Below are positions 2,416 through 19,494 of a stretch of 64,000 bases of DNA, in pieces. Position 1 is the first letter of the stretch. Every line of letters begins with the position of its first letter. The translations under genes were made by a program, and so were the position numbers. Below the pieces are notes generated by a model. It saw nothing but the letters and a program-made list of their open reading frames with translations. It was not told the DNA's origin and did no database searches. Origin of the DNA: Candidatus Yanofskybacteria bacterium (GTDB taxonomy: Bacteria; Patescibacteriota; Minisyncoccia; 2-02-FULL-40-12; GWA2-44-9); the NCBI GenBank assembly GCA_003514055.1, contig DOSG01000002.1, positions 79,825 through 143,824 on the forward strand, in the 5' to 3' direction.

Positions 2416-2443
2416 TAGGCGATGCTATCGAATTGGTGAAATA

Positions 2444-2480
2444 GGTAGTAGGTTATAGCATAAGACGGGCCAACGGCCCG
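2444..2480 (+). terminator. Perfect hairpin after copA (agcataagacgggcc-aac-ggcccgtcttatgct), followed by TGcTATAAT
   Basis: inverted repeat read directly from the sequence. Confidence 0.5.
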
Positions 2481-2536
2481 TCTTATGCTATAATGCGTAC
2501 AACAATAATTGTAACTGGCGACTTATCGCTGATGGT

Positions 2537-3565
2537 ATGACCGACAAAAATAAAAGTATCATATATGCTACCGTGGGGTTTATGTTTATGGCCGTATTCT
2601 TTGTTTTGGGGTACACGCATAATGATCAGGAGATAAAAGATTTTACTAAGACTAATATTGTTAAAGAAAAGATTACTGTCGAGCCCACGCCGAGTCCTGC
2701 GAGTAAAAATGGGGCCTCTATTATTTTTGTGGGCGATGTCATGACGTCACGAACAGTGGCTCAGAAAATGAAAAAGAATGGGTATGATTATCCGTTCTCA
2801 GCCATGGCGGGATATCTAAAAAGCGCTGACATGGTTTTCGCTAATCTAGAGACGCCCATAACGTCTGGGCCAAGCGTAAGTAGTGGAGATGTCGTTTTCC
2901 GTTCTGACCCAGAGGTTGCCGGTGCCTTGGCTCGCGCTAATATCAAAATAGTTTCTTTGGCCAACAATCATTCGATGAATTTTGGTGTTCAGGGCATAGC
3001 CGATACTTTCAAATATCTTATATCGGCTGGTGTCGATTTCGTGGGTGCCGGTAATAATGAAGTGGAAGCTTATGGGCCAAAATACATAAATATAAACGGG
3101 ATCAAGTTCGCGTTCTTGGCTTTTACTGATATCGACGTACTTCCTCCAGGAGCCGCTATAGAAGTGATTCAGCCAGGCGTAGCTATAATGGATTTAGCTA
3201 AGGCCAAGAAGGCAATTCAGGTAGCTAAAGGCATTGCCGATGTGATTGTTGTCTCGATGCACTCGGGTACAGAATATACCGACGTGCCCAATCAAAGACA
3301 AACAAGTTTCGCTCGAGGCGCTGTGGATGCGGGCGCTGATTTGGTTATTGGGCATCATCCGCATTGGACTCAAACGGTAGAGGAATATAAGGGCAAATAC
3401 ATTTTCTACAGTTTAGGCAATTTTGTATTTGATCAGATGTGGTCACAGAAAACCCGTGAAGGTGAAATTGTAAAAATATATTTTTCAAAGGATGGAGTCG
3501 AAAAATACGATTTGACTAGAATCGTTATTGACGATTATTCTAGGCCAAGGATAGTCCAGCCCTAA
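2537..3565 (+). CDS. CapA/PgsA-like metallophosphoesterase (poly-gamma-glutamate capsule synthesis family), membrane-anchored
   Basis: N-terminal TM segment; GDVM.., NNHSMNFG, GHHPHW motifs typical of the CapA family. Confidence 0.55.
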   Translation: MTDKNKSIIYATVGFMFMAVFFVLGYTHNDQEIKDFTKTNIVKEKITVEPTPSPASKNGASIIFVGDVMTSRTVAQKMKKNGYDYPFSAMAGYLKSADMVFANLETPITSGPSVSSGDVVFRSDPEVAGALARANIKIVSLANNHSMNFGVQGIADTFKYLISAGVDFVGAGNNEVEAYGPKYININGIKFAFLAFTDIDVLPPGAAIEVIQPGVAIMDLAKAKKAIQVAKGIADVIVVSMHSGTEYTDVPNQRQTSFARGAVDAGADLVIGHHPHWTQTVEEYKGKYIFYSLGNFVFDQMWSQKTREGEIVKIYFSKDGVEKYDLTRIVIDDYSRPRIVQP

Positions 3566-3675
3566 CGGACATTTTCTCATCAAGGGCCCGCTTCTTGGTT
3601 CTCGGGGCGCGAGATTAGACATGAGCCGTATGGCTCATTTGTTTTTTTCGAGGAAAAAGGTATAAATAAATTGCG

Positions 3676-5517
3676 ATGCCAGACGATAATATTTCAAAAA
3701 TAAAAGAGCGGCTAGACGTAGTCGGAGTCCTTTCTGGCTATATCAAAGTTCAGAAGGCGGGTATGAATTTCAAGGCACGTTGCCCGTTTCATAATGAGAA
3801 GACGCCATCTTTCTATATATCGCCAGAGAGGCAGATTTGGCATTGTTTTGGTTGTCAAAAAGGCGGCGATATATTTGCTTTCGTAAAAGAGATCGAGGGC
3901 GTCGAATTTCCAGATGCTATGCGCATACTGGCTCAGAAAGCTGGCATACAATTACAGCACTACGAGCTAATCGATCAGAAAAAAGACGAGAAAGCCATTC
4001 TGTATGATATCGTCGAATTAGCAACTAAGTTTTTCGAGAAACAACTTAGGGCCTCTAGAACGGGCATGCAGGCACTAAAGTATTTGAAAGAAAGAGGCCT
4101 CGAAGAGGGCACCATAGATGAATTTAGATTGGGCTTTGCGGCTAACGATTGGGAGGCCTTGTCATCTTTTTTAAGAGAGAGGGGATATAAGGAGCAAGAT
4201 ATCGTGGCCGCGGGTATGGCCATCAAGAGAGAAAATAAGAGTGGCGCTTATGACCGATTTCGTTCTCGAATTATATTCCCCATATTTGATCTAAACGGGA
4301 GGGTGGTCGGCTTCACGGGCAGAGTGTTTCAAGCAGAAAGACCGTTAGAGACTAAGGGCGAAGAGCCAGCTAAATATATTAACACGCCCCAGACTTCCAT
4401 TTATGACAAAAGTATGGTATTGTACGGCTTAAGTAAGGCGAAACAGAGTATACGCCAATCAGACAAATGTCTGCTGGTCGAGGGCAATATGGATGCCCTC
4501 ATGTCGTACCAGGCCGGCGTTACTAATGTAGTCGCCACATCCGGCACAGCGCTGACACCAAATCATTTAAAAATCCTACAGCGCTATACAAGTAATTTGG
4601 ATTTCTCATTCGATACCGATCAGGCCGGAGCGATAGCAACAAGAAGGGGCATAGGCCTCGCCTTAGCCCAAAATTTCAGTGTAAAAGTAGTTTCAATAGA
4701 AGATCCTTTATGCAAGGATCCGGCTGACTTTGTCCAGAAGCATGGTTCCAAATGGGCCGAGTTAGTTTCTGCATCAAAGCCGGTCATACAGTTCTATTTC
4801 GACAATTTGAGATCGCAGATAAACCCGTCATCGGTTGACGGGAAGAAAGCCGTTATTGCGGCGCTGGCACCTTTTATAAGAAGAATTGTCAGCAAAGTTG
4901 AGAAGGACCATTGGATTAGTCACTTGGCATCCTTTTTAAAAACTAAGGAAGAGGCACTTGAGGCTGATGTCTTAGCGGCTAAAGATGATTTAGGTGTTTA
5001 TGAAGGGGGTTCGAATGTCTCGGCTGGGCCAGTCCCAACGGTGGCTGCCGTGGGGTGGGCACCTGATAATGAATTGGCTGTGGATATACTTAGCGAGGCG
5101 CTGTTATCCATCATCATAAAGAATCCATCGATTTTTAAAGATGAGCTGGTCAAGATCAATCTGGACTTAATTGATCCTCGCGTATCTGGTGTTGTGACGG
5201 TGCTATCTAAGCTAGATCTAGAGAACTTTAATTTCGCCGAGGTCGTTAAGGGTTTTGACGGTGCGGCGGCGATGAAGCTAGAGTTTGCCTTCCTGAGGTC
5301 ACAAGAACTCTGGAAAGATTTTCAAGACGAAGATCTAAGGATAGAATTCAAGTCTGTTTTGCAAAAAATAGTTCACCGTTCGATTGTCGCTCGTCTAGTC
5401 AATCTCGAATACGAGATGAAAGAAGCCGAGATGACGGGTGATAAAGATAAGATTAGTGAATTGATATCGAAGTTCACAAATCTAACCAAGGAATTGGTTG
5501 AGATAAATAACATATAA
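3676..5517 (+). CDS. dnaG: DNA primase
   Basis: Zn-ribbon [11 protein letters not shown]...CFGC; TOPRIM region ([10 protein letters not shown]); 613 aa; immediately upstream of rpoD. Confidence 0.9.
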
Positions 5518-5518
5518 A

Positions 5519-6712
5519 ATGGCCAAAAAAACAAAAAAGACGACTGCGAAGAAAGCGATCAAGCCCAAGAATAAAGTTAAAGCTCCAAAAACCAAGAAGA
5601 AGGTAGCTAAGAAGTCTAAAGCTCCTGGTAAGATAATTTTAAGCGAAAGCAGCGTTCTTGCTTTGATCGAAAAAGGACGCCACAGAGGCTTTGTAACTCA
5701 GGCCGAAGTCTTAAATTCTTTTCCCAATATTGAGAAGGATATTAAGGGCCTAGAGGCCTTGTATGACAAACTCGATGCGGCAAATGTTAATGTTATTGAA
5801 TCTGGCAGGGTTTTTCATGAAGAATCAGTCAAAGAGTACGATGCTAAGAAAAAAATCGAAACTGAGTTTGGCGATTCTTCGTCAGATTCGGTGCAGATGT
5901 ATTTGAAAGAGATCGGGCAATATCCACTTTTAACTAGCGAGGAAGAAATTGAATTGGCTAAAAGAATTGAGAAGGACGACGAAGCGGCTCGTCAGAAGCT
6001 GGCTCTTTCGAACTTAAGATTGGTGGTCTCGATCGCCAAGAAGTACGTGGGGCGCTCGGCTAATTTGACTCTGCTTGATTTGATTCAAGAGGGGAATATT
6101 GGGTTATTTAAGGCCGTAGAAAAGTTTGATTACAAAAAGGGATATAAATTCTCAACCTATGCTACTTGGTGGATTAGGCAAGCTATTACTCGTGCCTTAG
6201 CTGACCAAGGCAGAACTATCCGCATTCCGGTGCACATGGTTGAGACTATAAATAAATACCAACAGGTAGTACGACGCTTAGTGCAGGATCTTGGTCGTGA
6301 GCCTATGCCGGAAGAGACTGCTTCAGAGATGGGCATTGCCGTGGATAAGGTTAGGCACATCATGAAGATCTCACAGGAAACGATTTCTCTCGAAGCGCCG
6401 GTGGGCGATGATGATGATCAGGATTCAAGTCTAGAGAGTTTTATTCCAGACGAAGATACGATTTCGCCATCGATGTCCGCCGCTAGAAAAATATTAAAAT
6501 CATATATTAACGAAATCATCGCCGACTTAACTCCAAGAGAGCAGAAAATACTAGATATGAGATTTGGATTGACCGATGGCGTGACTCACACTCTCGAAGA
6601 GGTTGGTAAGGTGTTTGCCGTTACTCGCGAGCGTATTAGACAAATTGAAGCCAAGGCTTTGGATAAAATTCGACAACATCACAAGTTGGGCAAGTTAAAG
6701 GGCTACGAATAG
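5519..6712 (+). CDS. rpoD: RNA polymerase primary sigma factor (sigma-70 family) with lysine-rich N-terminal tail
   Basis: region 2.4 [13 protein letters not shown]; region 4 [23 protein letters not shown]; dnaG-rpoD synteny. Confidence 0.9.
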
Positions 6713-6725
6713 CCGAGACAACTCG

Positions 6726-6770
6726 TCTCAAATCAAATGGCGGCCTTTGGCCGCCATTTGATTTGAGACC
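6726..6770 (+). terminator. Long perfect hairpin after rpoD (tctcaaatcaaatggcggcc-tttg-ggccgccatttgatttgaga)
   Basis: 20-bp perfect inverted repeat; no T-run follows, so the terminator role is inferred. Confidence 0.4.
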
Positions 6771-6858
6771 CTTGAATGCACGGAGTTCTTCTGTTAAAAT
6801 ATCTAAGTTCTTATAGAACAATACATTCCGCGATAGCTCAATGGTAGAGCGGCTCCCT

Positions 6859-7387
6859 GTGGAGACTATTCCTTCGAAATAGCGCTATAATGTTATTAAT
6901 GAAGGATAAAAGAACCTATGCCGATCGTCGCGAGGAATTGATAAAAGCGGTCGCCAAAAGGCGACGCAAAGTCAAAAGTCTAGCGATAGAATATAAGGGT
7001 GGCAAATGCCAAGTTTGTGGATATTGTAAGTATCAAGGAGCTCTTGATATGCACCACATATCTGATAAGCAATTTGGCATCGGAGATAAAGGATATACGA
7101 GATCTTGGGAAAAGATTAAACAAGAACTTGATAAATGTATCCTTGTCTGCGCAAATTGTCATCGTGAGATAGAAGGCGGCATAACGCAGCTTTCCGATCG
7201 AAAGACGGATTGAAACTTTTCGGGATAACGGTGAAGCCCTAGTCCGCCGACTGGTGGATGGGTAATACCGTGGGAACCTCGTAAATTTTACGAGGGCGCC
7301 GTAGAGACTAGATACCGAAACGCCTAAATCGTAAGGTAAGATAGGGCGAAGATATAGTCCACCCCGTGTCGTAAGACATGGATTACG
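6859..7387 (+). mobile_element. Group I self-splicing intron (approximate boundaries) with an ORF in its 5' part
   Basis: Conserved core elements in the expected order: R-like gtagagactaga (~7296-7307), S-like aagatatagtcc (~7341-7352). P8-like hairpin cgccta...tagggcg between them. P9-like GNRA hairpin ccgtgtc-gtaa-gacatgg, then G before the 3' exon. Confidence 0.6.
6890..7213 (+). CDS. HNH homing endonuclease (intron-encoded)
   Basis: CQVCGYC...DMHHISDK...N...VCANCH pattern (CxxC...HH...N...CxxCH); 107 aa; lies entirely inside the intron. Confidence 0.75.
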   Translation: MLLMKDKRTYADRREELIKAVAKRRRKVKSLAIEYKGGKCQVCGYCKYQGALDMHHISDKQFGIGDKGYTRSWEKIKQELDKCILVCANCHREIEGGITQLSDRKTD

Positions 7388-9011
7388 TGTAAGGAGAAGG
7401 TTCCAGGTTCGAGTCCTGGTCGCGGAGCAGAGGGTTCAAACCAGCGCCCGAAAGGGCGTTTTGGTTTGGATTAGAGCCACTTTTTGGCGGTTCTAAAGTT
7501 TGTTTTTGTAGTTTTGCCTGTTCTGCCCTTTCTTTTATCCTTAATATCGGTTTTTTATAGAATTTGCCCAATATCTCGCCGTTTAAAGTAAGGTTCGAGA
7601 ATATAAGCGACATGAACTCTCTTTTTGCCGGTATGTCGTCTTTTAGTGATTCGTATATTTCTTTTGATTTTCTGGCCAATTCCATAAAAGAACTACCGAG
7701 TAAGAGGAAATGAGTATTGTTTTGTTTTAATTTTGATTTTTCATCGATAACCCTTTGTTGATCCTGGTCCCACGTTTGGATATTACGGTTGTATTGGTCT
7801 TCAGATATCTTGCCGTCTAGCTTGTCTATATAGCAACGATCCTTGCGTTGCTGAAGAATCTGGAATTGTCGATCCAGATTCTCGGTTGCATTTTCAAAGT
7901 AATTAACTTCTTCCCGATGATTGCTTTTTAGTACTTCCTGGACCAGGGCAATTTCGTCCGGATCAAGCCCTTGGTGGAACCAGTCGAATATCTCCTTGGC
8001 CTGGGCCTCTATCCGGTCCTCACGTGCGAATTTTAGGCCCCTACAACCCTTATAGCCGTTACATCGGTAATAGGTTCGCCCTTTATGTATCTCACCACAT
8101 ACGGTGCCACCACAGGCCTTACAGTAAACCAACTGCTTAAAGAGGTGGAAGTGCTTCCTGTGTTTAGGCGTTGTTTTGGAATGCATGAGGGACTGCACCT
8201 GGTCAAATAACTCTTTCGATATCAATGCCGGGTGCTTGGCCGGATAGATAACACCTTTCCAAACCATCGAACCGTAGTAAAAGGGATCAGACAAAAGTTC
8301 TGCAATCCGGCTTTTAAGTATCTTTCGGCCGGACTCATTTCTTAAACCTTCTCGATATAACAGCTCAACAAGTGATTTTAGTGAATGCTGACCGGAAGCA
8401 TACAATTCAAACATACGACGAGCATACGGCGATTTATTCTCATCAACTATGTGGATCTTCCTGCCCTTTTCTCCGATGGTCTTATAGCCGATAGGGGGCC
8501 TAGTGGGAAGCCAGCCCTCTTTCAGTTTTTGTGCCTGGCCCTTTTTAACCTCCTCGGACAGGTTGTTTGAGTAAAACCTAGCAATAGCAATTTTCATATC
8601 CCATACCAGATTCTCGTGGGCCTTGGTATTCTTATTTGCTATGAAGTTCTCTTTTACGAAGTGTACTTTTCGGTTTTCATTCTCAAAAACCCAATCGCCC
8701 GCTATAATTGCTTCTTTTTGATTTCGAGTCATCCGATCGATTTTCTCGCATAAGATGTTGCCAGTATTATGGTCAACAGCATAATCAATCATCTGCTTAA
8801 ATATCTTTCGTGTCTGTTTTCCGCTTGCTGATTCTGGTACAGAGAACTCCTTAACGATCTTAAGGTTTTTGGAAGCAGCATAAGTCCTGAGCAACTCCGA
8901 TTGCGCGGCTAGGGAATACCCTTCTTCTGCCTGTTCTTTAGTGGATACCCGGCAATATAGAATTGCACAGTCGACTCTTATTCTTTGTATTTTTTGGTTT
9001 TCGGAAGCCAT
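7383..9011 (-). CDS. Large serine recombinase / integrase
   Basis: N-terminal resolvase catalytic domain (AILYCRVSTKEQ, YSLAAQ); recombinase domain; Zn-ribbon CKACGGTVCG...YYRCNGYKGC; coiled-coil C-terminus; 3' end overlaps the tRNA 3' exon on the opposite strand. Confidence 0.85.
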   Translation of the reverse strand: MASENQKIQRIRVDCAILYCRVSTKEQAEEGYSLAAQSELLRTYAASKNLKIVKEFSVPESASGKQTRKIFKQMIDYAVDHNTGNILCEKIDRMTRNQKEAIIAGDWVFENENRKVHFVKENFIANKNTKAHENLVWDMKIAIARFYSNNLSEEVKKGQAQKLKEGWLPTRPPIGYKTIGEKGRKIHIVDENKSPYARRMFELYASGQHSLKSLVELLYREGLRNESGRKILKSRIAELLSDPFYYGSMVWKGVIYPAKHPALISKELFDQVQSLMHSKTTPKHRKHFHLFKQLVYCKACGGTVCGEIHKGRTYYRCNGYKGCRGLKFAREDRIEAQAKEIFDWFHQGLDPDEIALVQEVLKSNHREEVNYFENATENLDRQFQILQQRKDRCYIDKLDGKISEDQYNRNIQTWDQDQQRVIDEKSKLKQNNTHFLLLGSSFMELARKSKEIYESLKDDIPAKREFMSLIFSNLTLNGEILGKFYKKPILRIKERAEQAKLQKQTLEPPKSGSNPNQNALSGAGLNPLLRDQDSNLEPSPYT

Positions 9012-9109
9012 TTCATTAAATTAGGGGTTGATTACATTAACGCTTAAGTTTGGAATCAATTCAAGTCTGTCATAATGGCTAATTTAGGTGGGATAAGCCT
9101 GGAGCAACT

Positions 9110-9245
9110 TTCCTAATATCCTTTATTTAAGCCATTTTTATAATGGTTTGATTCTCGACTTTTCCCAGCGGGTGATTTTCCGAAAAGTCTGATTTATGGC
9201 TAAAAAGTTCTGACCGGCTTTCCAAATATCCTTTATTTAAGCCAT
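9110..9245. repeat. Two ~32-bp direct repeats (tttccYaatatcctttatttaagccattDtt) about 100 bp apart, just upstream of the recombinase gene
   Basis: repeats read at ~9110-9142 and ~9213-9245. Confidence 0.5.
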
Positions 9246-9350
9246 TATTCTAGTAATTAATTTTAGACTTTTTATCTAAGACATTTTTATAACTTTTTCT
9301 TACTATTCTTATTTGTGTAAGCATAACCTTACGGGGCTATGCGATTATGT

Positions 9351-9749
9351 TTATAGGGGCTGTGAATTTTTATTTACACGTCTATCAACTACGCCGGTCT
9401 TATCCACAAATACCAGTGGTCTATATACGCAGACTGATCCATTTGTTGCTCTCTGGCTTTCTAGAAACCCCTTCTTAACGATTTTCTTTATGTTATTCAA
9501 GATGGTAATCCTGCTATTTTTTGAATTTAGGCCGATATCTTTTGCGATAGTATTGTGACTTACTCTGCACTGCCCCTTATTAAAAGTTCTCATAAGTATA
9601 GTTGCGTAGACTCTCATCTCTGAGTTTGTGAGTCCGCTACCCTTTATGATTTGATTAGGGACCATTGTAAACCCAAGCTCCTCCCATTTTTTAAGGCCTA
9701 ACCTTGATATTAGTTTTTGCAGAGCTATAGTTCGTCCTATTTGTTGCAT
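9351..9749 (-). CDS. Winged-helix/HTH DNA-binding protein (Rep- or repressor-like)
   Basis: HTH-like stretch SHNTIAKDIGLNSKNSRITILNNIKKIVKKGFLE; lies next to the recombinase. Confidence 0.4.
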   Translation of the reverse strand: MQQIGRTIALQKLISRLGLKKWEELGFTMVPNQIIKGSGLTNSEMRVYATILMRTFNKGQCRVSHNTIAKDIGLNSKNSRITILNNIKKIVKKGFLESQRATNGSVCVYRPLVFVDKTGVVDRRVNKNSQPL

Positions 9750-10037
9750 GGTTTATTTGTTGCCTCTTTTTTTGCTTGATTCTTAATAAGCCAACTAAAA
9801 AGCTGACATAGTGTTCTAAGATGTTCTTCCGCTTCAAGATCGGATTCAAAATCCTTCCCATATATTTTGCGGTATAGCTCTCGCATCTTTTTAATTTGTT
9901 CTTTAGATATAATCAAAGCCGCCGGCTCATGGGGATAAACCGGCGGCTTTGGTCCCCATGAAAATAAATAACCTGATGGTTATACCACCAGGTTATTCTG
10001 TCTTAACGACGATGACTAAGTATTAAGTGAGGTACAC

Positions 10038-10802
10038 TTACTTTCGCCTTTTTTTCTCGATGGAGATGATTTTTCCGATACTGCCTGCATCTATTGAGCG
10101 CGTCAGCTTTTCGGGGAACATTTCGCAGACTAGGTTTGCGAGTTTTTTTCTCGACATGTGACGATTCCTATAGATGAAGTCGGTCATCTCGCGACTCCCT
10201 TCTCTTCTAGTCCTGACCTGGAGTAGCCTGCTTTCTTCCCCAGATCTTTCTCCAGCGATGCGTTTCCAATTCTTGCTTATAAAGTCGATCAGATCCCGCT
10301 TGGTTGCATCTTTGTGAACCCCGATTGCGATAGGATACTCATCGCCGCGATTAACCACTTCTTTTAGTAAGGCCATGGGGCTGTTCCCGTTATCTGGGTC
10401 AAACCCACCGTCGTAAGTTGATAGATCTTCAGCTAGGTTAAAAATCTCAATAACCCCATAATCAAAATCTGGTTTTAGGTGGACAAATCTCTCTATGTCA
10501 TTATAGAAAATATATACCTTAGACAGGAACACAACGGCCCAATGTTTTATTGGAAACCCTGAGATCAGGTTCTCTATATCTCGGTTCAACTCTCTGTATA
10601 AGTCCCCGGACCCAAAATTAATCGGGAATGTTTGCTGGTTTATCTCTGGTAGTTCTTTATCTGAAATTGAAATCCCACTTGGAAGAATCCCATATTTTAC
10701 CCTAAGCTCTCTAGCGGTTTTTTGGAACGAGTCAGTTCTTAAGAAATCTCTAAAGGTATTAATAACCTTTTTGTTTGATTTATTTTTCCCCATGATTATC
10801 AC
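10038..10802 (-). CDS. Hypothetical protein (254 aa)
   Basis: long ORF with no recognisable motif. Confidence 0.45.
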   Translation of the reverse strand: MIIMGKNKSNKKVINTFRDFLRTDSFQKTARELRVKYGILPSGISISDKELPEINQQTFPINFGSGDLYRELNRDIENLISGFPIKHWAVVFLSKVYIFYNDIERFVHLKPDFDYGVIEIFNLAEDLSTYDGGFDPDNGNSPMALLKEVVNRGDEYPIAIGVHKDATKRDLIDFISKNWKRIAGERSGEESRLLQVRTRREGSREMTDFIYRNRHMSRKKLANLVCEMFPEKLTRSIDAGSIGKIISIEKKRRK

Positions 10803-11076
10803 AACCGTAGCGATTTTTAGTCAATTTTTCAAGTAGAGCAAGACCTTTTAATCATTGAGTGTTTGTGGTAAATTTAGCGTAACAATTCAGCCTAAACCAA
10901 TCGGGGCAACCTGATTAGCATGGCATCAAATACCGACGAAGATACTGAACCCATCGTTCAGGCTCCTTCGTCGGTCCATACCCGAAAGGGTGTGGGAGAG
11001 TGAAAGCTCTCGGCCTAGCGGTGGGTTTAGTGTTATACAAAACCCTGAGTCCCCATTAGCCGAGGCAAAATATACC

Positions 11077-11547
11077 ATGGGGACGAATCTCAAACGAATC
11101 ACGGTGAGCCTATTGCTAGTTGTTGGTGTGGTTGTACTTATCTCGGCATTGTCCTCTGGTGAACCAGGGAAGGATGTGGAAACAGTTGCCGCGTTTGATG
11201 TCCCAATGCTTGTTGGCAAGGACCTCTCCGGACTTGTAGCCGAATTGGGCATACCAGATAATAACAGCGAGCCGAATATGCTCCAAATAGAAAATGGGAC
11301 AAAAACATGGGAAAAAAGCTGGGAACGGGGCGACTATTTTCTTATGGCAACTTACGATGTAAAAACTAGAAACGTTATAGACTTGTTTATAGGTGCTGAA
11401 ACCGACGCCGGGTTTGTTCAGTTCCGGGATACAAAAAATATCTTGAAGGTAGGTGGACTATCCTCGAGTGCTACTGGTTACTCGGTCGAATTTGTAAAAG
11501 CAAGAAATACTCCGGGTTATACAGGTGCTGTTATTAAGGAGAGGTAA
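11077..11547 (+). CDS. Hypothetical membrane-anchored/secreted protein
   Basis: internal ATG followed by a hydrophobic segment (ITVSLLLVVGVVVLISAL). Confidence 0.45.
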   Translation: MGTNLKRITVSLLLVVGVVVLISALSSGEPGKDVETVAAFDVPMLVGKDLSGLVAELGIPDNNSEPNMLQIENGTKTWEKSWERGDYFLMATYDVKTRNVIDLFIGAETDAGFVQFRDTKNILKVGGLSSSATGYSVEFVKARNTPGYTGAVIKER

Positions 11548-11655
11548 ATAATGGGAGGATATCCCGACAAGGTTCAATACGATCTTGTCCAGTATCCATG
11601 TTGATTTTATTGTCTATTTCTGCGAGGATGTCTTCATCTAAATAATTTCAGCAAT

Positions 11656-12795
11656 ATGACGAGAAAAATTAATAAAATTGAGCTTCCAAAACCAATAGAC
11701 AAGAAAGAGATTACCTTGGATTCTTTAGTGTTAGACGACGACAATCCTCGCTTTGGGAGTACCCTGAACGGCAAAAGTCAGGAAGAAATCATAGAGAAAC
11801 TTGCCAAAGAGAAAAATCTATATGAGTTAATAGAATCATTCAGACAGAATGGTTACTACGAAGCAGAACCCCTGCTAGTTATCGGAGATAAAAAAAGTCC
11901 TGGTAAGTATATCGTCATTGAGGGCAATCGACGCGTAGCAGCTTTAAAAATACTTTTTGACTCAAACCTTTTAAAAAAATTCGGCTTTTCTAGTCCAAAC
12001 AATTTAAAACTTGAGGATTCTCTTGTGGAAAATCTCACCAAACACATTCCTGTGCAGGTTTATGGTAGTCGAAAAGATCTATGGAGCTACTTGGGCTTCA
12101 GGCATATTAAGGGGCCAATGCCGTGGGATCCTTATAGTAAGGCGCTTTATATTGTTAGTTTACATAAAGCTGGTACGTCAATAGACGAGATTGTTGAGCG
12201 CATAGGAGATCAAAATGCTCTAGTCGTGAAGATGTTTAATGGCATAAAGGTACTACAACAGGCAGAGCGCAAAAACCTTATTGAACCGGAAAATATAGCA
12301 AAGTTCGCCTTTTCCCATTTGTATACCATTCTTGGATACACAAATACGCAAAAGTTTCTTGGTCTTAAAATAAAAAGTGGGACTCTCTTAAAAGACAACC
12401 CCATACATGAAAAATATATTAAAAATCTGAAGTTACTCATTGAATTTATTTATGGTGATAAGGAGGGTAAATTCAAGTCGGTTATTCGGTCACAGAATCC
12501 TGATATCCGCCAATTAGACGCAGTCTTAAGCGACCCGAAATTAATAGCTGACCTAAAGGTAAACGTGAATCAGGTCGGATCTTTGAGTAATGTCTTTGCT
12601 GCTACCGGAGAGGCAGAGCAGATAGTCCCAGACTTAATAGCTGATGCTTTGGCAAAACTTAAAAAAGCAGCTGCCAACTTTCATACATATAAAAAAGTTG
12701 ACTCTTCCACAAGATCAATGATCGATGAAATAGCTGAGCTTGCCATAGATTTAACAAACAGACTCGATGCCAAGAAAAAAGGTAAAAAAAGCTAG
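11656..12795 (+). CDS. ParB-like / DUF262-like NTPase-nuclease domain protein
   Basis: DDDNPR box followed by YIVIEGNRRVAALK, resembling ParB Box I-II and the DUF262 DGQQR motif; 379 aa; 3' end overlaps the next gene by 29 nt. Confidence 0.5.
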   Translation: MTRKINKIELPKPIDKKEITLDSLVLDDDNPRFGSTLNGKSQEEIIEKLAKEKNLYELIESFRQNGYYEAEPLLVIGDKKSPGKYIVIEGNRRVAALKILFDSNLLKKFGFSSPNNLKLEDSLVENLTKHIPVQVYGSRKDLWSYLGFRHIKGPMPWDPYSKALYIVSLHKAGTSIDEIVERIGDQNALVVKMFNGIKVLQQAERKNLIEPENIAKFAFSHLYTILGYTNTQKFLGLKIKSGTLLKDNPIHEKYIKNLKLLIEFIYGDKEGKFKSVIRSQNPDIRQLDAVLSDPKLIADLKVNVNQVGSLSNVFAATGEAEQIVPDLIADALAKLKKAAANFHTYKKVDSSTRSMIDEIAELAIDLTNRLDAKKKGKKS

Positions 12796-13747
12796 ATCTT
12801 CTGCTCCTACTTTACGCCAGCTGATATCATTACCAAACCAAGCAGACGAGTTATCAGAGTTAGCAGATTGGGTAGAAGTTTCAGCATGGATTCAATCTGA
12901 CTATCAAGTTAGTCGGGAAGAGGTACTGTCTGTTTTTTCGTTTGCATCGGATAGTAATGATGCAGAAGAAAAAGTTTCAAAGTTGTGGGACGAATTAAAA
13001 ACCCGTGCTGTAATTCTCCAAGATCATTATCCCTTTGCGTTATCTCCCGGGGAAGAGATTTTTCAATTTAAAAATAACGACCGCTACAAGGCTTATCTTT
13101 TTTGTTTACTTCTTTCGTTTGTTGGACTTACAAAAATAAACTCCAGAACATTTCCCGCTGCAAGTATTTTTGAAGAGTTATGCTCTTCTGTCGCTCAGAA
13201 ATATATTTCAAGTGAGTCAGTTCCTGCGAAAAGCTTACATTTTGGTTGGCCGCGTAATAGCTGGCCCAGAAGACAAAGATCACTATTAAAGGCCCTGCCA
13301 GAGCTTATAAGGACCCTCGGAGATGGAGAAAATCTAATTGATGGTGTCAGAAGTGGACGAAGTGCTCATACAGGAGATGCGGGTCTAGATATTGCTGCTT
13401 GGCGTCCATTCGTAGATGAGAGAAGGGGCATGTTGGTATTTTTAGGGCAGTGTGCAACTTCTAGGGACCATAATAGTTACATGAAGAAATTAGGAGACCT
13501 CGATTCATTCCTACTAGAGTGTGTTAACTTTAATTTTCCAAACACCCTAGGGTTGTTTATACCCCATATCCTGAGCGACAACGATCAATCCCACAAGGAG
13601 TACTGGGAGAGAATAAAGAGAAGGAAGAATATCCCATTTGATAGAATTAGAATTGCTCTTTATGGCGAGTCTTGGTCAAACTCTAAACTAGATACTTTTT
13701 TAAGTAGTCAACGTAAAAAATTGAAACAGGAGCACTCTCTTACTTAA
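12767..13747 (+). CDS. Hypothetical protein, putative nuclease partner (DUF1524/His-Me-finger-like, tentative)
   Basis: C-terminal IPHILSDNDQSHKEYW...N...SNSK resembles the EHIxPQ...W...N...N pattern of DUF1524; translationally coupled to the ParB-like gene. Confidence 0.35.
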   Translation: MPRKKVKKARSSAPTLRQLISLPNQADELSELADWVEVSAWIQSDYQVSREEVLSVFSFASDSNDAEEKVSKLWDELKTRAVILQDHYPFALSPGEEIFQFKNNDRYKAYLFCLLLSFVGLTKINSRTFPAASIFEELCSSVAQKYISSESVPAKSLHFGWPRNSWPRRQRSLLKALPELIRTLGDGENLIDGVRSGRSAHTGDAGLDIAAWRPFVDERRGMLVFLGQCATSRDHNSYMKKLGDLDSFLLECVNFNFPNTLGLFIPHILSDNDQSHKEYWERIKRRKNIPFDRIRIALYGESWSNSKLDTFLSSQRKKLKQEHSLT

Positions 13748-14885
13748 GAACCTTGATCGTAAAGTCGTACTCTCCAGAGTCATCGTATTTTTTGCCGAAC
13801 ATTCTAGCCTGCCGCACTTTTTTAAAAGGAGAGTAGCTTTCTTTTATTAAACTAAGTTTTTGATTGCTCCTTTTTATGCTTTTCTGGATAATTTTTCGCA
13901 AAGGGTAATTATCTTTTGTGGATTGACCTATTCTACATACTATAATCCCATCTTTACTCATTATTTTAATAAGTGACTTCCATGTGTCAGAAAGAAAATC
14001 TATATATTTTTCTTGAGATGCAATTCTGTCATCTTTGGTTATCTTGCCTCGTGATGGAAATGGCTCGAATCCTAAGAACCATAGCCTTAGCCACTGGTCT
14101 TCCTCGTAAGATGTTATTTTTAAATATGGCGGAGACATTACTACTAGCGCGGCTTTCTTACTGGTGATCTTCTTTATGTTTCTATCAATATCTCTAACAT
14201 CTCCTAAGATACAATGCCCACGAGATTTAAATTTATGCTGTTTAGAGTTTGATAGTCTGAAATTTGTCCTGTCTCGTAAAACAGAGAAGGTGTCTATATG
14301 AGGAGCCTTCATTTTATTTTTGTGCCAGAATCTAACTGAGTAGCCTGGCTTCGGGCAATACGTATGGGGCAGGTTATTGCTTAAGTAAACCTTTTTTGTT
14401 TTTTGTGTTTCCCCGTGCAAGTAGCTAAGACATAATGTTTTAATAAAAAGACCCTCCTTTGTTTGCTCTTTTTTAAGTCGGTTCCTTAACCATAAAATCT
14501 GAAGTAGGGTTTTGCTATAGTATGCATGGCGGAAAAAAAGCGGCAACCTGGAAGCTTCTTCTCTGATAGAATTCTTATCGGCCGACTCAAACTCCTTCTC
14601 TAGTTTTTCGATGTATTTTAAGCAGGTAGCCAGTTTAATGGGCCTTGTTTTTGCTTGAGTAATCGCAAACGCCACAGGGTTTATATCATTGGCTATCGCC
14701 GCTCTTCCCAGTATTCTTGCTTCCAACAAGGTGGTTCCTCTACCTGAAAAGGGGTCTATAACTAAATCTCCTGGCTTTGAATGTTTTAAGATGGCGTCTC
14801 TAGCAAATTCTGGAGGGAACATGGCAAAATAAGGGCATAGTGCATGCATTGCATCATTGTAAGTTATTGAGGATATAATTTTCAT
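13740..14885 (-). CDS. DNA methyltransferase (N6-adenine or N4-cytosine, amino-MTase)
   Basis: AdoMet motif I DLVIDPFSGRGTT near the N-terminus and catalytic motif IV SPPY (VVMSPPYL) about 210 aa downstream. Confidence 0.8.
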   Translation of the reverse strand: MKIISSITYNDAMHALCPYFAMFPPEFARDAILKHSKPGDLVIDPFSGRGTTLLEARILGRAAIANDINPVAFAITQAKTRPIKLATCLKYIEKLEKEFESADKNSIREEASRLPLFFRHAYYSKTLLQILWLRNRLKKEQTKEGLFIKTLCLSYLHGETQKTKKVYLSNNLPHTYCPKPGYSVRFWHKNKMKAPHIDTFSVLRDRTNFRLSNSKQHKFKSRGHCILGDVRDIDRNIKKITSKKAALVVMSPPYLKITSYEEDQWLRLWFLGFEPFPSRGKITKDDRIASQEKYIDFLSDTWKSLIKIMSKDGIIVCRIGQSTKDNYPLRKIIQKSIKRSNQKLSLIKESYSPFKKVRQARMFGKKYDDSGEYDFTIKVLK

Positions 14886-15147
14886 TCCTGCTTTAAATTT
14901 AGCAAATTTATGAGACCTTGGCCAGAGTGGGTTAACAACAGGTGAAATTAAAGAAATCTATTCAATTTTTTTTGTAGTAAATCCAGGTCTCCGAATTCTT
15001 CGACCCAATCAATCTGTCTGAAATCGTCCTTCAGTGCGAGCTAGTAGCGCTGTTATAATGAGAGCCAGCATTATCTGACTTTTTAGTTATAACAAGTATG
15101 GACGGTAGAGCTAACTTCTGATAACCTTATCGCATTCCATCAGAAGG

Positions 15148-15756
15148 TTGAGACCTATGCGACTAATTATCGGCACCACAAATGAGGCCAAGGTTAAGCA
15201 AATTAAAGGAGCCTTGCTGCCACTGAAATTTCAAGTTGATGGCGTCAAAGATAAGAGTGTTCTTCCTGAAGTAATAGAGGATGGTGCGACTGCTCAAGAT
15301 AACGCCAGGAAGAAAGCCGTCGCATATGCCAAGGTATTGGGCGCAACAGTTTTATCAATGGATAACGCCCTATTTATTGATGGTCTGAACGAGAAAGAGC
15401 AGCCTGGCATTAATGTCCGGAGAATAAATAGTCGAGATGACCGTTCGGATGACCAAGAATTATTGAACCACTATAGTTCCTTAATCAGAAGGCTCGGAGA
15501 AAAAGTCGGGGGGCATTGGGAGTTTGCGATATGCGTAGCGACTCCAAGCGGCGAGACTCGTGAGACAACGATCATATCGCCAAGATTGTTTGTTGCTCAG
15601 TCGAGTTCGAAGATAGTACCAGGCTATCCGCTTGAGTCGATTCAAATTGAACCAGAGAGTGGAAAGTATATCTCCGAAATGAGCCAAGACGAACAGGACG
15701 TGTTTTGGCAGAAAGCAATCGGGAAAGAACTATGCAACTTTGTCGGATCATTGTAA
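15148..15756 (+). CDS. Ham1/RdgB-like non-canonical purine NTP pyrophosphatase (tentative)
   Basis: N-terminus RLIIGTTNEAKVKQIKGAL resembles the RdgB/Ham1 start; about 200 aa. Confidence 0.5.
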   Translation: MRPMRLIIGTTNEAKVKQIKGALLPLKFQVDGVKDKSVLPEVIEDGATAQDNARKKAVAYAKVLGATVLSMDNALFIDGLNEKEQPGINVRRINSRDDRSDDQELLNHYSSLIRRLGEKVGGHWEFAICVATPSGETRETTIISPRLFVAQSSSKIVPGYPLESIQIEPESGKYISEMSQDEQDVFWQKAIGKELCNFVGSL

Positions 15757-15770
15757 TCCCAGGCCCATTC

Positions 15771-15900
15771 GCCGACTAACGTCGGCTTTTTTATTCCAAA
15801 CAGATTCTGACATCAATGCATCAACGGAGCTAGCAGCGCTGCTATACGAAAGTTGACAAATGCCACGAGGGTGGTATTTTAGACTTAGTTTGCTCACAAA
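15771..15900 (+). promoter_or_regulatory. Intergenic module A: hairpin terminator (gccgactaacgtcggc+T7), conserved element ccaaacagattctgacatcaatgcatcaacggagc, then promoter TTGACA / ATGCCAC-gagg-GTGGTAT / TATTTTAG
   Basis: a homologous module occurs at 22086-22185. Confidence 0.6.
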
Positions 15901-15909
15901 GGATAGGCA

Positions 15910-16113
15910 ATGGCCAAACTGTCCATTAACGATATAAGACGGCGGATTAAACAAGCATCAGAGACCGGGCAAGCCTCGTGCGACATCGGGATTGAAGGGG
16001 CATTTCTAGTTCTCTTTGCTGGGATGTCCTTGAATGAAAGAAAACATATATCGAAACGAAAAAGTGAGGGGCGAAGAAGGCCAAACTCAAGCTCAAAGAA
16101 AAGAGCTCGCTGA
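15910..16113 (+). CDS. Small basic protein (67 aa), hypothetical
   Basis: ORF directly downstream of the operator-bearing promoter. Confidence 0.35.
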   Translation: MAKLSINDIRRRIKQASETGQASCDIGIEGAFLVLFAGMSLNERKHISKRKSEGRRRPNSSSKKRAR

Positions 16114-16228
16114 CCGAGAACGGTCATTTTTTAATCCAAACAGATCCTGGCATTCTTTACTCAGCGGAGCACCTATAAAAAGCCAGATAATACTGGCTTT
16201 TTGGTTGGACCTAATGTGGACGTTAGAA

Positions 16229-16927
16229 CTAATCTATCCTTTTCAAGACAAGGTCGCTGAACATACCCGGTATATTTTCGATTACCCACCCTGGCATATA
16301 TTTTTCAAACATAATTTTAAAATACTCCGAGCGTTCTTTCGCCTTACCTTTCCTGCGTAATTTATCGGGTAAAAAATCCTTATCAAATAGTGAATAATAT
16401 AATTCGAACACTTCGTGAGGCAAATGTCCGCTTTTTATTTCATCTCGAGTCAATTTATTGTTGGGATTTGCCAGAATCTCTTCTATGCACCTCCCTACGT
16501 CGCTCCCATAATAAGCAGTATCTGCCGGTGATATGCCGATTGCTTTAATTGATTTCAAGGAAGCCGCGGCTTCAATAAAAGAAGAGATGGCATTCCGAAG
16601 TATCGTCTGATCTTCTGGGCTTAGCCTTATCCGGGCGTATGCATATTCTCTAGTTTTAAATAGGAAGCTGTAACTATTGCCATAGCCTTCGGAAAGTCGG
16701 AATATATACTTTAGCCCGCCAATCGTCTTTTGTAAGGTATAGCGATTGTATGGTTGCTCCTCGCGTCGGAATGCGAAGGGGTAGGTCGTTGAATGATAAA
16801 TCTTTCCTTCTTCTAACTCTGGAAGGTTTTCTAACTCCAATTCTCGTTCGCTTTCGACGACTATGGGGGAGTTCGGCTTATGCTCTATAATCTTTTTGGC
16901 TTCGTTACTATTCCATTCTTGGCTCAT
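16229..16927 (-). CDS. Hypothetical protein (232 aa)
   Basis: long ORF on the minus strand inside the cassette region. Confidence 0.5.
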   Translation of the reverse strand: MSQEWNSNEAKKIIEHKPNSPIVVESERELELENLPELEEGKIYHSTTYPFAFRREEQPYNRYTLQKTIGGLKYIFRLSEGYGNSYSFLFKTREYAYARIRLSPEDQTILRNAISSFIEAAASLKSIKAIGISPADTAYYGSDVGRCIEEILANPNNKLTRDEIKSGHLPHEVFELYYSLFDKDFLPDKLRRKGKAKERSEYFKIMFEKYMPGWVIENIPGMFSDLVLKRID

Positions 16928-17099
16928 GATAATAATTCTACTATTAAATTTATTAAATGGTAGGGACGGCTAGATTAAATATTCAGATATTCTCTCAAGT
17001 CGGGGATATGCAAAAAATTCTCTTTTTTGATCACAGTTCTAACGTCATTCACAATGCGGAGCATTTTTCAGAGAGTGGCTTAAAACACCACTTTTTGAT

Positions 17100-17221
17100 A
17101 TTGCAAATATTAGGATTTTGTGCTATAATATAGACAATGTTGCACCATCTAATCTGGATGCGTGCAGGCAGACCGTAAACCAACGATCCAGCACAGCTGG
17201 ACGGATGGAAGGAGAGCGGCT
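17100..17221 (+). promoter_or_regulatory. Promoter TTGCAAAT...TGCTATAAT plus a conserved 52-nt leader (hairpin ccagc-aca-gctgg; RBS ggaaggagag) ahead of paralogue 1
   Basis: nearly identical to 23146-23264. Confidence 0.55.
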
Positions 17222-17650
17222 ATGGCAACTATGGTGTTGCTCGACAACAATGGCGAGAAAGTACGGACTCTCGGGTCGATCATCAATCCGAACCCGGATC
17301 TGGTCATCCCGCAGGGGTGGATGCTCAGTTGGGAAAATCAGTTCATGGAGGTCACTGCGACCGATCGTCTGAAAAATGCCGTGCTTACGCACGGGAAGGC
17401 CCGCGTCCTGGTCAATGTCGTGATGCAGACGCTCGTGGTCAGAATCGAGAGCCCGAATGTGAGGGATCTCGTGGAGGCAATCGACCTCATGGTTCAGTAC
17501 GTCGGGGGCGAGGTCGCTACGTTCAGCCCCTCCGCCGCCAACAATTCGTTCGTCGGCGGCATCAAGAACGACCTCGTCTTTCTTCGAAACATGGCGGTAC
17601 GGGCCATTCGCTCGCTACGGCAGCGAACTGGCTTCAAGATCGCGCGCTAA
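17222..17650 (+). CDS. GC-rich hypothetical protein, paralogue 1 (~142 aa)
   Basis: start MATMVLLDNNGEK after the RBS; 180 nt identical to the 23218-23398 copy, then diverged; own big-stem terminator downstream. Confidence 0.6.
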   Translation: MATMVLLDNNGEKVRTLGSIINPNPDLVIPQGWMLSWENQFMEVTATDRLKNAVLTHGKARVLVNVVMQTLVVRIESPNVRDLVEAIDLMVQYVGGEVATFSPSAANNSFVGGIKNDLVFLRNMAVRAIRSLRQRTGFKIAR

Positions 17651-17855
17651 GCGCTCACACCTCGCATCGAGACAGGGGATCCCAATCCTCGTCTGGTGCG
17701 GGGTCCTTTGTTTTTATACGTATCCAAGACTAATTAAATCTCCCCGAATTCTTACTCAATCCAGCGTTCTGAATGCGTTCCGTAGGCAGAGCAAAGCTTG
17801 ACAATAGCACTAGATGGTGCTATTGTTATTTTAACCTTAAAACTAGGAGAGTGTC

Positions 17856-18059
17856 ATGCGAATAGTTGCCGATGCGTCAAAACGTACATTGAAATTAACT
17901 GCCGAAACTGATATTGACGAGGATGAATTGATAAGAGCGAACTACGTAGTGGTAAGTTCCAAAAAGTGGTACCAATTTTGGAAAAAATCACCAACCGTTA
18001 AATTGACAATGGCTGGAGATAAGAATAAATATCTTCAGGCAATAGAAATCTCTTTCTAG
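17856..18059 (+). CDS. Small hypothetical protein (67 aa)
   Basis: promoter TTGACA-ATAGCAC-N6-GTGCTAT upstream; RBS aggaga; terminator gacccacagtgtgggtc follows. Confidence 0.4.
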   Translation: MRIVADASKRTLKLTAETDIDEDELIRANYVVVSSKKWYQFWKKSPTVKLTMAGDKNKYLQAIEISF

Positions 18060-18127
18060 GTGACCCACAGTGTGGGTCTTTCTTTTGCCTCAAAACAGTC
18101 TCTAACATCAAAGCGTTCGGGGAGTTA

Positions 18128-18162
18128 ACTTGATTATATCACGGAAACGTGGTATAATTATT
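18128..18162 (+). promoter_or_regulatory. Promoter TTGATT-N17-TGgTATAAT (extended -10)
   Basis: acttgattatatcacggaaacgtggtataattat; near-duplicate at 19808-19842. Confidence 0.55.
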
Positions 18163-18197
18163 CTAGTTCTCAAAAACCCAAGAAAGGAGTCAGTATA

Positions 18198-19322: not shown

Positions 19323-19494
19323 TGAGCAAGCTCAGAAATCACCTGCCCGCGAGAGCCCGCACATTACGTGCCCGCCTCGCGGGCTCTCTCTTTTTATACA
19401 AACGCATATTTTATTAAATCATTGTGAATACTAACCCAATCCAGCGTTCTGAATGCGTTCCGTAGGCAGAGCTGACAGCATTATTGCAAGTATA

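Follow-up and report, generated by a model that had tools for sequence, protein, structure and literature searches.

For unidirectional DNA insertion, serine integrases are the principal tools, and the control of their direction is an active structural question. The large serine recombinases (LSRs) of phages and of integrative and conjugative elements (phiC31, Bxb1, A118/LI, SPbeta SprA, and TP901-1; CcrA/B and XisF) consist of a catalytic domain, a recombinase domain, and a zinc ribbon with a coiled-coil insert, and they act at a short core with a 2-bp crossover, the outer motif of attP lying 5 bp further out and long end repeats being absent. tRNA/tmRNA genes were used by 14 of 297 serine-integrase elements in one study, which termed such use previously unreported (PMC7192596), and a large LSR survey never mentions tRNA (PMC10083194). 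We found no literature pairing LSRs with the Candidate Phyla Radiation (CPR). Integrases that split their own gene have been described as archaeal tyrosine recombinases and stated to be exclusive to archaea; in these "suicidal" integrases (SSV1, pTN3, and pT26-2), attP lies in the integrase gene, the gene is partitioned, and a tRNA gene is the target, which poses an excision puzzle (PMC8371274). In Islander-type islands, a tyrosine integrase abuts the 3' end of a tRNA gene, the tRNA is regenerated, and variable cargo, including defense genes, and tandem arrays occur. Here we analyzed a 64-kb window (the whole stretch of DNA under study) from a groundwater population of Candidatus Yanofskybacteria (Parcubacteria/Patescibacteria, CPR), in which an element headed by an LSR gene lies between the 3' end of a tRNA-Asn(GUU) gene and a Ham1 gene. 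Proteins identical to those of the window are also found on contigs of metagenome-assembled genomes (MAGs), e.g., GCA_001795935.1 and GCA_001001065.1.

Very probably, the locus holds a well-delimited 7.6-kb integrative element that represents a large, undescribed serine-integrase variant widespread in Patescibacteria. The recombinase shares the domain order and the core and motif arrangement of the phage-type LSRs, but it targets the 3' end of a tRNA gene, carries attP in its own open reading frame (ORF), shows no conservation of the B' arm, and resides in Patescibacteria; moreover, integration is predicted to strip it of a 30-aa ordered module. The attP within the integrase gene, the partitioned gene, the tRNA target, and the excision puzzle are shared with the archaeal suicidal integrases (PMC8371274). 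The SSV-type enzymes, however, are tyrosine recombinases (Phage_integr_3) whose split parts the N terminus from the catalytic domain and inactivates the protein, whereas the window enzyme is a serine recombinase and loses ~30 residues beyond all known domains. The element resembles the Islander-type islands in its integrase abutting a regenerated tRNA, its variable cargo, and its tandem arrays, but it has neither a tyrosine integrase nor a displaced tRNA fragment repeat, and 4 nt are shared between its ends.

Junctions and the split recombinase gene

The element spans window positions ~7,426-15,039. Its length, ~7,613 bp between the two GA dinucleotides, follows from the core GAGC shared at the two ends, whose features are as follows.

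6827-6860, plus strand: 5' exon of tRNA-Asn(GUU), tRNA positions 1-35, read directly from the sequence
6861-7389, plus strand: group I intron at tRNA position 35/36, 529 nt (Rfam Intron_gpI)
7390-7427, plus strand: 3' exon of tRNA-Asn; T-arm and acceptor strand, the putative B half-site of attL
7383-9011, minus strand: LSR gene, integrated tail-less form, 542 aa (Pfam, NCBIfam, and PHROG matches)
7425-7428: attL core GAGC (GCTC in the recombinase sense), at the tRNA acceptor end
7429-7465: putative P' half-site within the recombinase 3' coding region; holds a terminator-like hairpin, 7443-7460 (plus strand), right after the tRNA (terminator scan)
7489-7496: third TTCGAAC-type motif, "LEP/FEP" codons, plus strand GGTTCTAA, 68 nt from the core
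14948-15040, minus strand (30 codons, 14951-15040): orphan recombinase tail LALKDDFRQIDWVEEFGDLDLLQKKLNRFL plus stop; also the putative P half-site of attR
15038-15041: attR core GAGC
attL junction: GGTCGCGGAGC joined to AGAGGGTTCAAACC
attR junction: CCTTCAGTGCGAGC joined to TAGTAGCGCTGTTATAATG
Predicted attP: CCTTCAGTGCGAGC joined to AGAGGGTTCAAACC; the reconstructed site is also written ...CAGTGCGAGC joined to AGAGGGTTC...
Predicted attB: GGTCGCGGAGC joined to TAGTAGCGCTGTTATAATG; also written ...GGTCGCGGAGC joined to TAGTAGCGCTG...

On every criterion that a sequence can test, the enzyme is an LSR. It matches Resolvase (PF00239; 1e-23) and Recombinase (PF07508; 6e-16), as well as Zn_ribbon_recom (PF13408) at 1e-4 and 22.9 bits, under the Pfam cutoff of 25.3; its nearest NCBIfam models are CcrB and XisF, and it matches phrog_95 "integrase" at 1e-73. 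In an alignment of 25 family members, the catalytic residues R21, S23, R68, D92, R93, and R96 and the zinc-ribbon residues C297, C300, C317, and C323 are invariant, and the AlphaFold model of a homolog, P0004, places long paired helices (341-445) between beta elements, as a coiled-coil insert. An earlier note, made from the sequence alone, had described a 542-aa LSR ending inside the tRNA 3' exon; the LSR assignment stands on the Pfam matches and catalytic residues, but the end was misplaced. The ORF runs antisense across the whole exon, where its codons LLRDQDSNLEPSP are the exact reverse complement of the tRNA sequence, and its stop codon (7383-7385) lies within the last 7 nt of the intron, the final 14 codons being antisense tRNA plus intron. 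Homologs number more than 1,800 (40-53% identical, mostly from Patescibacteria), and at least 86 of the 119 examined (at least 72%) end at or in an antisense tRNA, the usual end "...LLR(G/R/D)QDSNL..P" being antisense tRNA. A minority run past "LL" into a conserved ~30-aa tail, "...AW.D.FRT.DW....PEL.I..IN.LLALV".

The same tail is present in the window, detached from the gene. A search of the six-frame translation of all 64 kb with the tail profile gave its best match at 14951-15040 on the minus strand, where LALKDDFRQIDWVEEFGDLDLLQKKLNRFL is encoded in the gap between the methyltransferase gene and Ham1. The peptide shares 57% identity over 28 aa (E, 2.4e-8) with the extreme C terminus of P0004, the closest long-tailed homolog, and it was the only match outside the LSR gene when 60 family proteins were compared with the window by tblastn. 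Joined to the LSR gene at "...NPLL" (...AAC CCT CTG CTC / GCA CTG AAG...), it continues in frame and yields a protein of 558 aa with a family-typical end. The right end had been predicted at 14.9-15.2 kb, and attR indeed lies at 15038-15041; the proposal of an integrated element with the tRNA region as its attachment site is thereby upheld by the detached tail and by the same anatomy in ~20 relatives.

The two junctions have only GAGC in common, and a repeat search of 6500-20000 gave no tRNA-end repeat of 14 nt or more. Strand exchange by serine integrases takes place at a core of 2 bp, and attR is therefore not expected to carry a long copy of the tRNA end; such a repeat, by which the earlier note would have recognized attR, was the wrong sign for a serine integrase, and the lack of flanking repeats does not speak against integration by one. 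Two weak inverted repeats (7392-7409/14545-14562 and 7470-7487/17959-17976) were dropped as chance matches. By symmetry, the crossover dinucleotide would be GA at 7425-7426 (tRNA positions 71-72): the sequence (TA)GGA is mirrored in both arms of attL, which points to a central TC in the recombinase sense, and the position fits both a native 3' exon and the likeness to unoccupied tRNA genes ending ...CGGAG. With a crossover there, essentially no tRNA sequence would be duplicated.

ARAGORN called zero tRNAs in the unspliced window because of the intron, and the tRNA-Asn gene was recovered by a relaxed-threshold Rfam search and manual splicing; the spliced exons are called tRNA-Asn(gtt), 73 nt with a canonical fold. 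The Intron_gpI match (44.6 bits; E, 5.7e-9) is under the gathering score, and an intron ORF at 6890-7213 resembles an HNH homing endonuclease (weak HNH match), an ORF that the intron of many relatives does not have. This intron type and position have been described in tRNA-Asn of Patescibacteria, including rare HNH-bearing versions, in a 2026 paper that does not mention any recombinase (PMC13011429). The exons show compensatory changes in both halves, implying that the 3' exon is native to the tRNA, and likeness to unoccupied tRNA genes of relatives stops at ...CGGAG. Since the terminator-like hairpin of the putative P' half-site directly follows the tRNA, the element probably supplies the tRNA terminator.

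Recurrence of the split and geometry of the half-sites

We collected 80 metagenome loci (designated by L numbers) with an alignment of their LSRs. An opposite-strand tRNA-Asn(GTT) overlaps the LSR 3' end in ~45 of them and a tRNA-Gln, -Arg, -Val, -Asp, or -Ser in ~10, while several further loci have the "YT"-type tails typical of an intron-split tRNA-Asn. Even a distant LSR (L071; 23% identity) overlaps its tRNA in the same frame. Orphan tails were detected ~24 times (~0.05 expected), without exception on the strand of the LSR and upstream of it, which makes the elements 6-11 kb long; tails contiguous with an LSR were found only three times. About 20 related elements show the same split with the same GCTC core (LSR sense) at both junctions, and the core covaries with the target, being GCGCG at tRNA-Asp and TGGCTC where the tRNA gene encodes CCA.

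We further aligned 35 attL and 20 attR sites on the core, counting positions from the central dinucleotide. The B arm, on the tRNA side (...TC/CGCGGGTAGGATTCGAAC), has GGA at 9-11 and TCGAAC at 13-18, the latter so placed in 33 of 35 attL sites. The P arm, on the tail side (...TC/GCTTGG..GGACG..TTTCGAAC), has GGA at 9-11 and TCGAAC at 18-23, and the FRT codons always fall at the same place, as the alignment of the tails is gap-free. In the family attL consensus, the P' arm, formed by the last LSR codons, has a mirrored TAGGA at 7-11 (GGA at 9-11) and a hairpin, and the B' arm shows no conservation across the alignment. The window P arm likewise has GGA at 9-11, with TTCAGA(C) at the 5-bp-shifted position. 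It has been reported that the recombinase-domain motif of LSR sites is fixed, whereas the motif of the zinc-ribbon domain (ZD) lies at 16-24 in attP and 5 bp inward (11-19) in attB (PMC3783163). As aligned, the family half-sites match this published 5-bp shift of the ZD motif.

A third TTCGAAC-type motif, with nearly invariant "FEP" codons, is found in 27 of 35 attL sites at a distance of 67-68 nt from the core and falls in a linker that is predicted to be disordered; its fixed nucleotide spacing suggests a role at the DNA level. We considered this motif as a relic of a second tRNA and rejected the idea, since T-stem complementarity is lacking.

The contigs of many relatives (among L094-L173) stop within ~100 nt of the recombinase 3' end. 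In the population of the window, L005 (LCIK01000005.1) ends at window ~15136, 95 nt past attR, and L006 (LCGN01000005.1) ends at window ~11322. Contig ends near the junctions would be the pattern expected where assembly breaks at polymorphic or repeated junctions.

Possible role of the tail and mobility of the element

We propose that the LSR inserts the element at the 3' end of tRNA-Asn(GUU), exchanging 2 bp at the GA of ...GGAGC. The B half-site would be the tRNA T-arm and acceptor strand, P' the last ~25 bp of the recombinase coding region, and P the initial ~25 bp of a 30-codon tail that can be detached; since P' and P would both consist of recombinase codons, attP would lie inside the recombinase ORF. 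The enzyme encoded by the circle would have 558 aa and a small helical module at its end. On integration, the codons of this module would come to lie at attR, at a distance of 7.6 kb and devoid of a start codon, and the chromosomal LSR would then end in 14 codons running antisense through the tRNA exon. The tRNA would be regenerated exactly and would gain a terminator-like hairpin from the element. The rest of the element would fall into a maintenance/regulation block (winged-helix gene, repeats, and 254-aa protein gene), the LOOT RNA with a membrane-protein gene, and a restriction-modification-like cargo.

Within this anatomy, the chances come close to even that the tail peptide is functionless and that attP merely overlaps the integrase 3' end of a compact element. 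The "tail" would then be a P-arm DNA site with tolerated read-through, and the integrated and excised enzymes would behave alike. Indeed, the best-conserved codons of the tail (D.FRT) fall on the P-arm DNA motifs GGA...TCGAAC, the tail matches no Pfam family, the integrated form keeps all catalytic and DNA-binding domains, and canonical serine integrases achieve directionality without such a tail (PMC3783163). A bare DNA site, however, accounts less readily for conservation that reaches 60-70 nt past the 25-bp half-site. Each of the 18 orphan tails examined is an uninterrupted ORF of 30-34 codons with its stop at the same place, and differences past the ~25-bp P arm amount to 0.40/0.56/0.63 at codon positions 2/1/3, a protein-coding-like substitution pattern. 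Besides, the AlphaFold model of P0004 (predicted local distance difference test [pLDDT] score, 79) shows a confident LSR body with a long coiled coil, a disordered tether of ~60 aa (491-553), and, in the last ~30 residues, a three-helix module (556-586; pLDDT, 83-85). As this module begins at the "LL" crossover codons, integration would strip one discrete ordered unit.

A regulatory function of the tail swap is therefore worth stating, although we hold it only as a tentative possibility. At that same low confidence, the recombinase may be a sensor of the state of the element: only the excised circle would encode the full-length enzyme, integration would swap an ordered three-helix module on a ~60-aa tether for a few antisense-tRNA codons, and LOOT would be a dedicated leader controlling variable membrane-protein cargo. 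The module might then act as a cis-tethered regulator of direction or activity, e.g., one needed for attP x attB synapsis or one blocking re-excision until it is lost. In synthetic fusions of an integrase with a recombination directionality factor, a C-terminal module on a flexible linker can reportedly set the direction of recombination. The natural tail has the same topology in the model, and a directionality role for it is only a proposal. No candidate directionality factor was identified; conserved small ORFs (FAM3 and FAM5) precede the recombinase in relatives.

As for mobility, the window holds what look like traces of earlier insertions.

17768-17792, minus strand: older attR-type scar, core plus degenerate tail LLCLRNAFRTLD and stop, within repeat 17701-17792
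19448-19472, minus strand: second older attR-type scar, LCLRNAFRTLDWVSIHNDLIKYAFV and stop, within repeat 19381-19472

Both scars have the core GCTC and decayed tails (LLCLRNAFRTLDW) in the same orientation as the live attR, and both are matched by the tail profile. The P-arm pattern occurs three times in the 64 kb (0.15 expected), in attR and the two scars, always on the minus strand, and tblastn with 60 family proteins found no LSR remnants at the scars. The scars would imply serial insertions at the window tRNA. Because they lie beyond Ham1, at 17.8 and 19.5 kb, this gene and those up to ~19.5 kb may be stranded cargo; Ham1, which the earlier note took for the housekeeping boundary, is correctly named but may not belong to the core chromosome.

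Several features of the sequence around the scars are recorded here in their own right. A ~6-kb segment (~17.7-23.1 kb) lies between ~650-nt direct repeats (17066-17722/23110-23766; ~12% diverged over 17354-17722) and is missing from the otherwise identical MAG contig L091/GCA_003509745.1, which is a deletion or duplication polymorphism downstream of the element. The host flank just past attR (15042-15055; TAGTAGCGCTGTTA, then TATAAT) resembles a perfect palindrome, TAGCAGCGCTGCTA, at 15831-15844, which is preceded by ...ACGGAGC (15820-15844). Promoter-like intergenic repeats (TTGACA...TATAAT types) extend across 15.8-19.9 kb (15787-15882, 16127-16170, 18082-18165, 19469-19524, and 19807-19844). 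The palindrome and the repeats may be operator/promoter cassettes or further pseudo-att sites.

Relatives provide arrays and one presence/absence comparison. We considered "unsplit" homologs as excised forms, but L174 shows that at least some of them are tandem arrays: in its two-element array (222-9721), the ORF of an unsplit LSR continues into the tail of another, distinct element, and it is the LSR of the latter that lies against tRNA-Asn. In L156 (10560-10706 and 880-1200), a left part runs into the LSR 3' end, and a right part lies 9.6 kb away, just past the orphan tail; in L057, both flanks are adjacent and contiguous (...GGGTGTGGAGC/CAAAGAACCTG...), the only comparison of this kind that was found. 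L057 has a minimal scar after tRNA-Asn (5511-5711), i.e., a P'-like hairpin, ~190 nt, and then an old tail remnant. This remnant is the left part of the comparison, so that the L156 element sits at an old tail-type scar. The elements thus appear to insert also beside older copies, which is consistent with an unconstrained B' arm. Serine integrases are not expected to use hybrid sites.

Several observations weigh against an actively integrating element with the junctions proposed here. No empty site was found for the window copy, as all contigs with an identical RpoD, recombinase, or Ham1 carry the element, and the exact 558-aa attP-form protein is absent from a collection of 15 billion proteins. 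The unsplit LSR-plus-tail ORFs that could be resolved belong to the L174 tandem array or to the L175 contig, which has no detectable terminal overlap and ends ~400 nt past the gene, and no contig that carries one has been shown to be circular. The L156/L057 pair compares different species, one side has ~95 nt in excess, and the target was an old scar instead of the tRNA. Among the tRNA-abutting loci for which 10 kb of upstream sequence was available, about half gave no detectable tail, although these elements may be longer or their tails more divergent. Finally, the P-arm search pattern was loosened after the window sites had been viewed, and it is symmetry only that places the crossover dinucleotide.

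The element could be a fixed, immobile remnant, a domesticated defense island whose recombinase is inactive or repurposed, a view that we regard as unlikely. All population contigs that were examined (~60 index blocks for the recombinase) carry it in identical form, neither an empty site nor the attP-form protein was found, and the decayed downstream scars show that elements of this kind have become stranded at the locus. A variant site seemed to exist in L091, but the apparent difference consists of assembly Ns. When the genome collection was scanned with rpoD as the anchor, dnaG-rpoD-tRNA-Asn was all that other species had in common with the window, with nothing syntenic downstream; as all population contigs carry the element and downstream synteny is lost elsewhere, the comparison with related genomes that the earlier note proposed has no empty site to offer. 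Candidate contigs showed no terminal overlap indicative of circularity. Against a dead remnant, the recombinase keeps all catalytic residues, the ORF of the orphan tail is intact and in frame with the gene, both att half-sites still fit the family consensus, and contigs of many relatives break within 100 nt of the recombinase 3' end, as at polymorphic junctions. We infer that the integrative element is probably still capable of movement.

A small prophage or phage satellite, rather than a plasmid-like integrative element, is improbable. Three close relatives are in the IMG/VR viral collection, the relative L175 has cI/ImmA-like and Rep_O genes, and the cargo module is also carried by a P2-like prophage. 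The IMG/VR contigs, however, are themselves integrated copies cut at the tRNA, no free form being found in the viral collection; none of the seven element proteins matches a capsid, portal, terminase, or tail protein in PHROGs or Pfam; sizes are only 6-11 kb; and the recurrent genes encode primase zinc-finger, helix-turn-helix (HTH), and small proteins. As for a chance origin of the tRNA overlap and the orphan tail in an ordinary variable chromosomal region, an antisense tRNA is often open in one frame and gene order past tRNA-Asn varies in relatives anyway, but this is effectively refuted by the same-frame overlap in dozens of loci with recombinases only 23-50% identical, by ~24 orphan tails in a single orientation against ~0.05 expected, by three P-arm patterns against 0.15 expected, and by the shared core and the half-site alignment.

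Maintenance-type genes, LOOT RNA, and defense-like cargo

The remaining features of the locus are as follows.

3676-5517: dnaG, upstream of the element
5519-6712: rpoD, upstream of the element; followed by a hairpin and then the tRNA gene
9074-9292: direct repeats between the winged-helix gene and the recombinase start; candidate operator or iterons
9351-9749, minus strand: winged-helix protein, 132 aa (HTH_36, Rep3_N, and phage-O N-terminal matches, all subthreshold; phrog_678, 8e-8)
10038-10802, minus strand: hypothetical protein, 254 aa, divergent from LOOT; no family matches
10889-11011, plus strand: LOOT RNA (RF03000), 76.4 bits against a gathering score of 46.4, model positions 1-121
11077-11547, plus strand: membrane or secreted protein gene, 156 aa, 66 nt after LOOT; N-terminal hydrophobic segment; longest ORF from 10990
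11656-12795, plus strand: protein with a ParB-like N-terminal domain, PD-lambda-5_A type (PADLOC PD-Lambda-5_A, 1.8e-26; TIGR00180, 1.8e-6)
12767-13747, plus strand: 326-aa partner, winged helix and PD-(D/E)xK-like nuclease fold (model)
13740-14885, minus strand: N6/N4 DNA methyltransferase gene, convergent (PF01555, 1.4e-19; PADLOC MTase_II, 1e-24)
15148-15756: Ham1 (Pfam)

The tRNA-Asn gene follows rpoD in relatives as well. The order dnaG-rpoD-tRNA-Asn is kept in very diverse Patescibacteria (L010-L089; L098, L101, L118, L122, L142, L153, L155, and L165), and beyond the tRNA everything is variable, implying that this locus is a general insertion hotspot in the phylum.

All features listed in the earlier note are present, with corrections. 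Its pair of 32-bp repeats is real but is the best-conserved core of a 69-nt duplication (9074-9142/9184-9252; 72% identical), and a 22-nt motif, TTTATTTAAGCCATTTTTATAA, occurs three times (9122, 9232, and 9271). Its winged-helix gene has only the subthreshold matches given above; the related element L175 has Phage_rep_O and HTH_36. The 254-aa protein shows weak N-terminal likeness (E, 1e-4) to the protein at the same position in L105 and is probably a distant member of a family of LOOT-adjacent proteins. Taken together, the winged-helix protein, the repeats, and the 254-aa protein suggest that the excised form replicates.

The LOOT RNA, which the earlier note did not list, was found in 12 of 19 delimited relatives in addition to the window: L100 (5227-5350), L127 (3901-4017), L106 (8155-8278), L105 (8324-8441), L131 (7924-8047), L174 (6882-7003), L156, L159, L119, L129, L132, and L134. 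It is mostly antisense to the LSR block, and in ~11 of the 13 cases an ORF with an N-terminal transmembrane or signal segment follows 40-66 nt downstream. As the proteins encoded by these ORFs are unrelated, LOOT seems to be a conserved 5' leader of membrane-protein cargo that varies; the main text of Weinberg 2017 has nothing on LOOT. Protein cargo is not conserved family-wide. What recurs in relatives is a DnaG-type (primase) zinc-finger protein, an ~450-aa HTH protein, DUF5659, small ORFs, and the ~240- to 280-aa neighbor of LOOT.

The remaining cargo resembles a restriction-modification system. The first protein had been called ParB/DUF262-like; the ParB part is supported by TIGR00180 and PD-Lambda-5_A, whereas DUF262 as such was not detected in it. 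Its homologs include proteins of L201 (51% identity) and of a Pantoea P2-like prophage (33%). A confident model of the 326-aa partner resembles PD-(D/E)xK restriction endonucleases with a winged helix; D204, D208, W212, and Q228 are invariant in its family (Q228-C-A is conserved), and a canonical D...(D/E)xK triad with its catalytic lysine is not evident. Neither the partner nor any other cargo protein matches the PD-Lambda-5_B profile, and sequence searches of the PDB with the ParB-like and 326-aa proteins were uninformative. The DNA methyltransferase and Ham1 assignments were both confirmed by Pfam.

The trio of ParB-like protein, 326-aa protein, and methyltransferase is also present in the Patescibacteria contig L201 (325-3567) and in a Pantoea ananatis P2-like prophage (L199/L200, 4823-7949), where it lies between replication gene A and the portal gene and where a C5 methyltransferase replaces the N6/N4 one. 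This position in P2-like prophages is a hotspot of anti-phage genes. The trio seems to behave as a restriction-modification-like defense module. In its first protein, the nuclease-like model of its partner, and its family-swapped adjacent methyltransferase, it resembles PD-lambda-5 and type II systems; it differs from PD-lambda-5 in that the partner does not match the B profile and from type II in that the canonical triad is not evident. "Defense island," as the earlier note had it, is thus a reasonable name for the cargo in view of the PD-Lambda-5_A match, the recurrent trio, and the nuclease-like fold model.

CPR bacteria are uncultured and without genetic tools, and a widespread integrase with a defined, universal target (the 3' end of tRNA-Asn) is a candidate tool for them. 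Besides, the orphan LOOT RNA gains a biological home, and a PD-lambda-5-like module is placed on a mobile element in Patescibacteria. The family, with more than 1,800 members, contradicts two statements, namely, that only archaea have self-splitting integrases (PMC8371274) and that tRNA genes are not a known target of serine integrases (PMC7192596). It is a natural family in which integration alters the C terminus of the enzyme, and its 558-aa and 542-aa forms with four short sites make a simple, testable system. If the tentative proposal that the recombinase senses the state of its element is true, the detachable tail would be a built-in, factor-independent directionality switch for serine integrases and a bacterial counterpart of the archaeal suicidal integrases.

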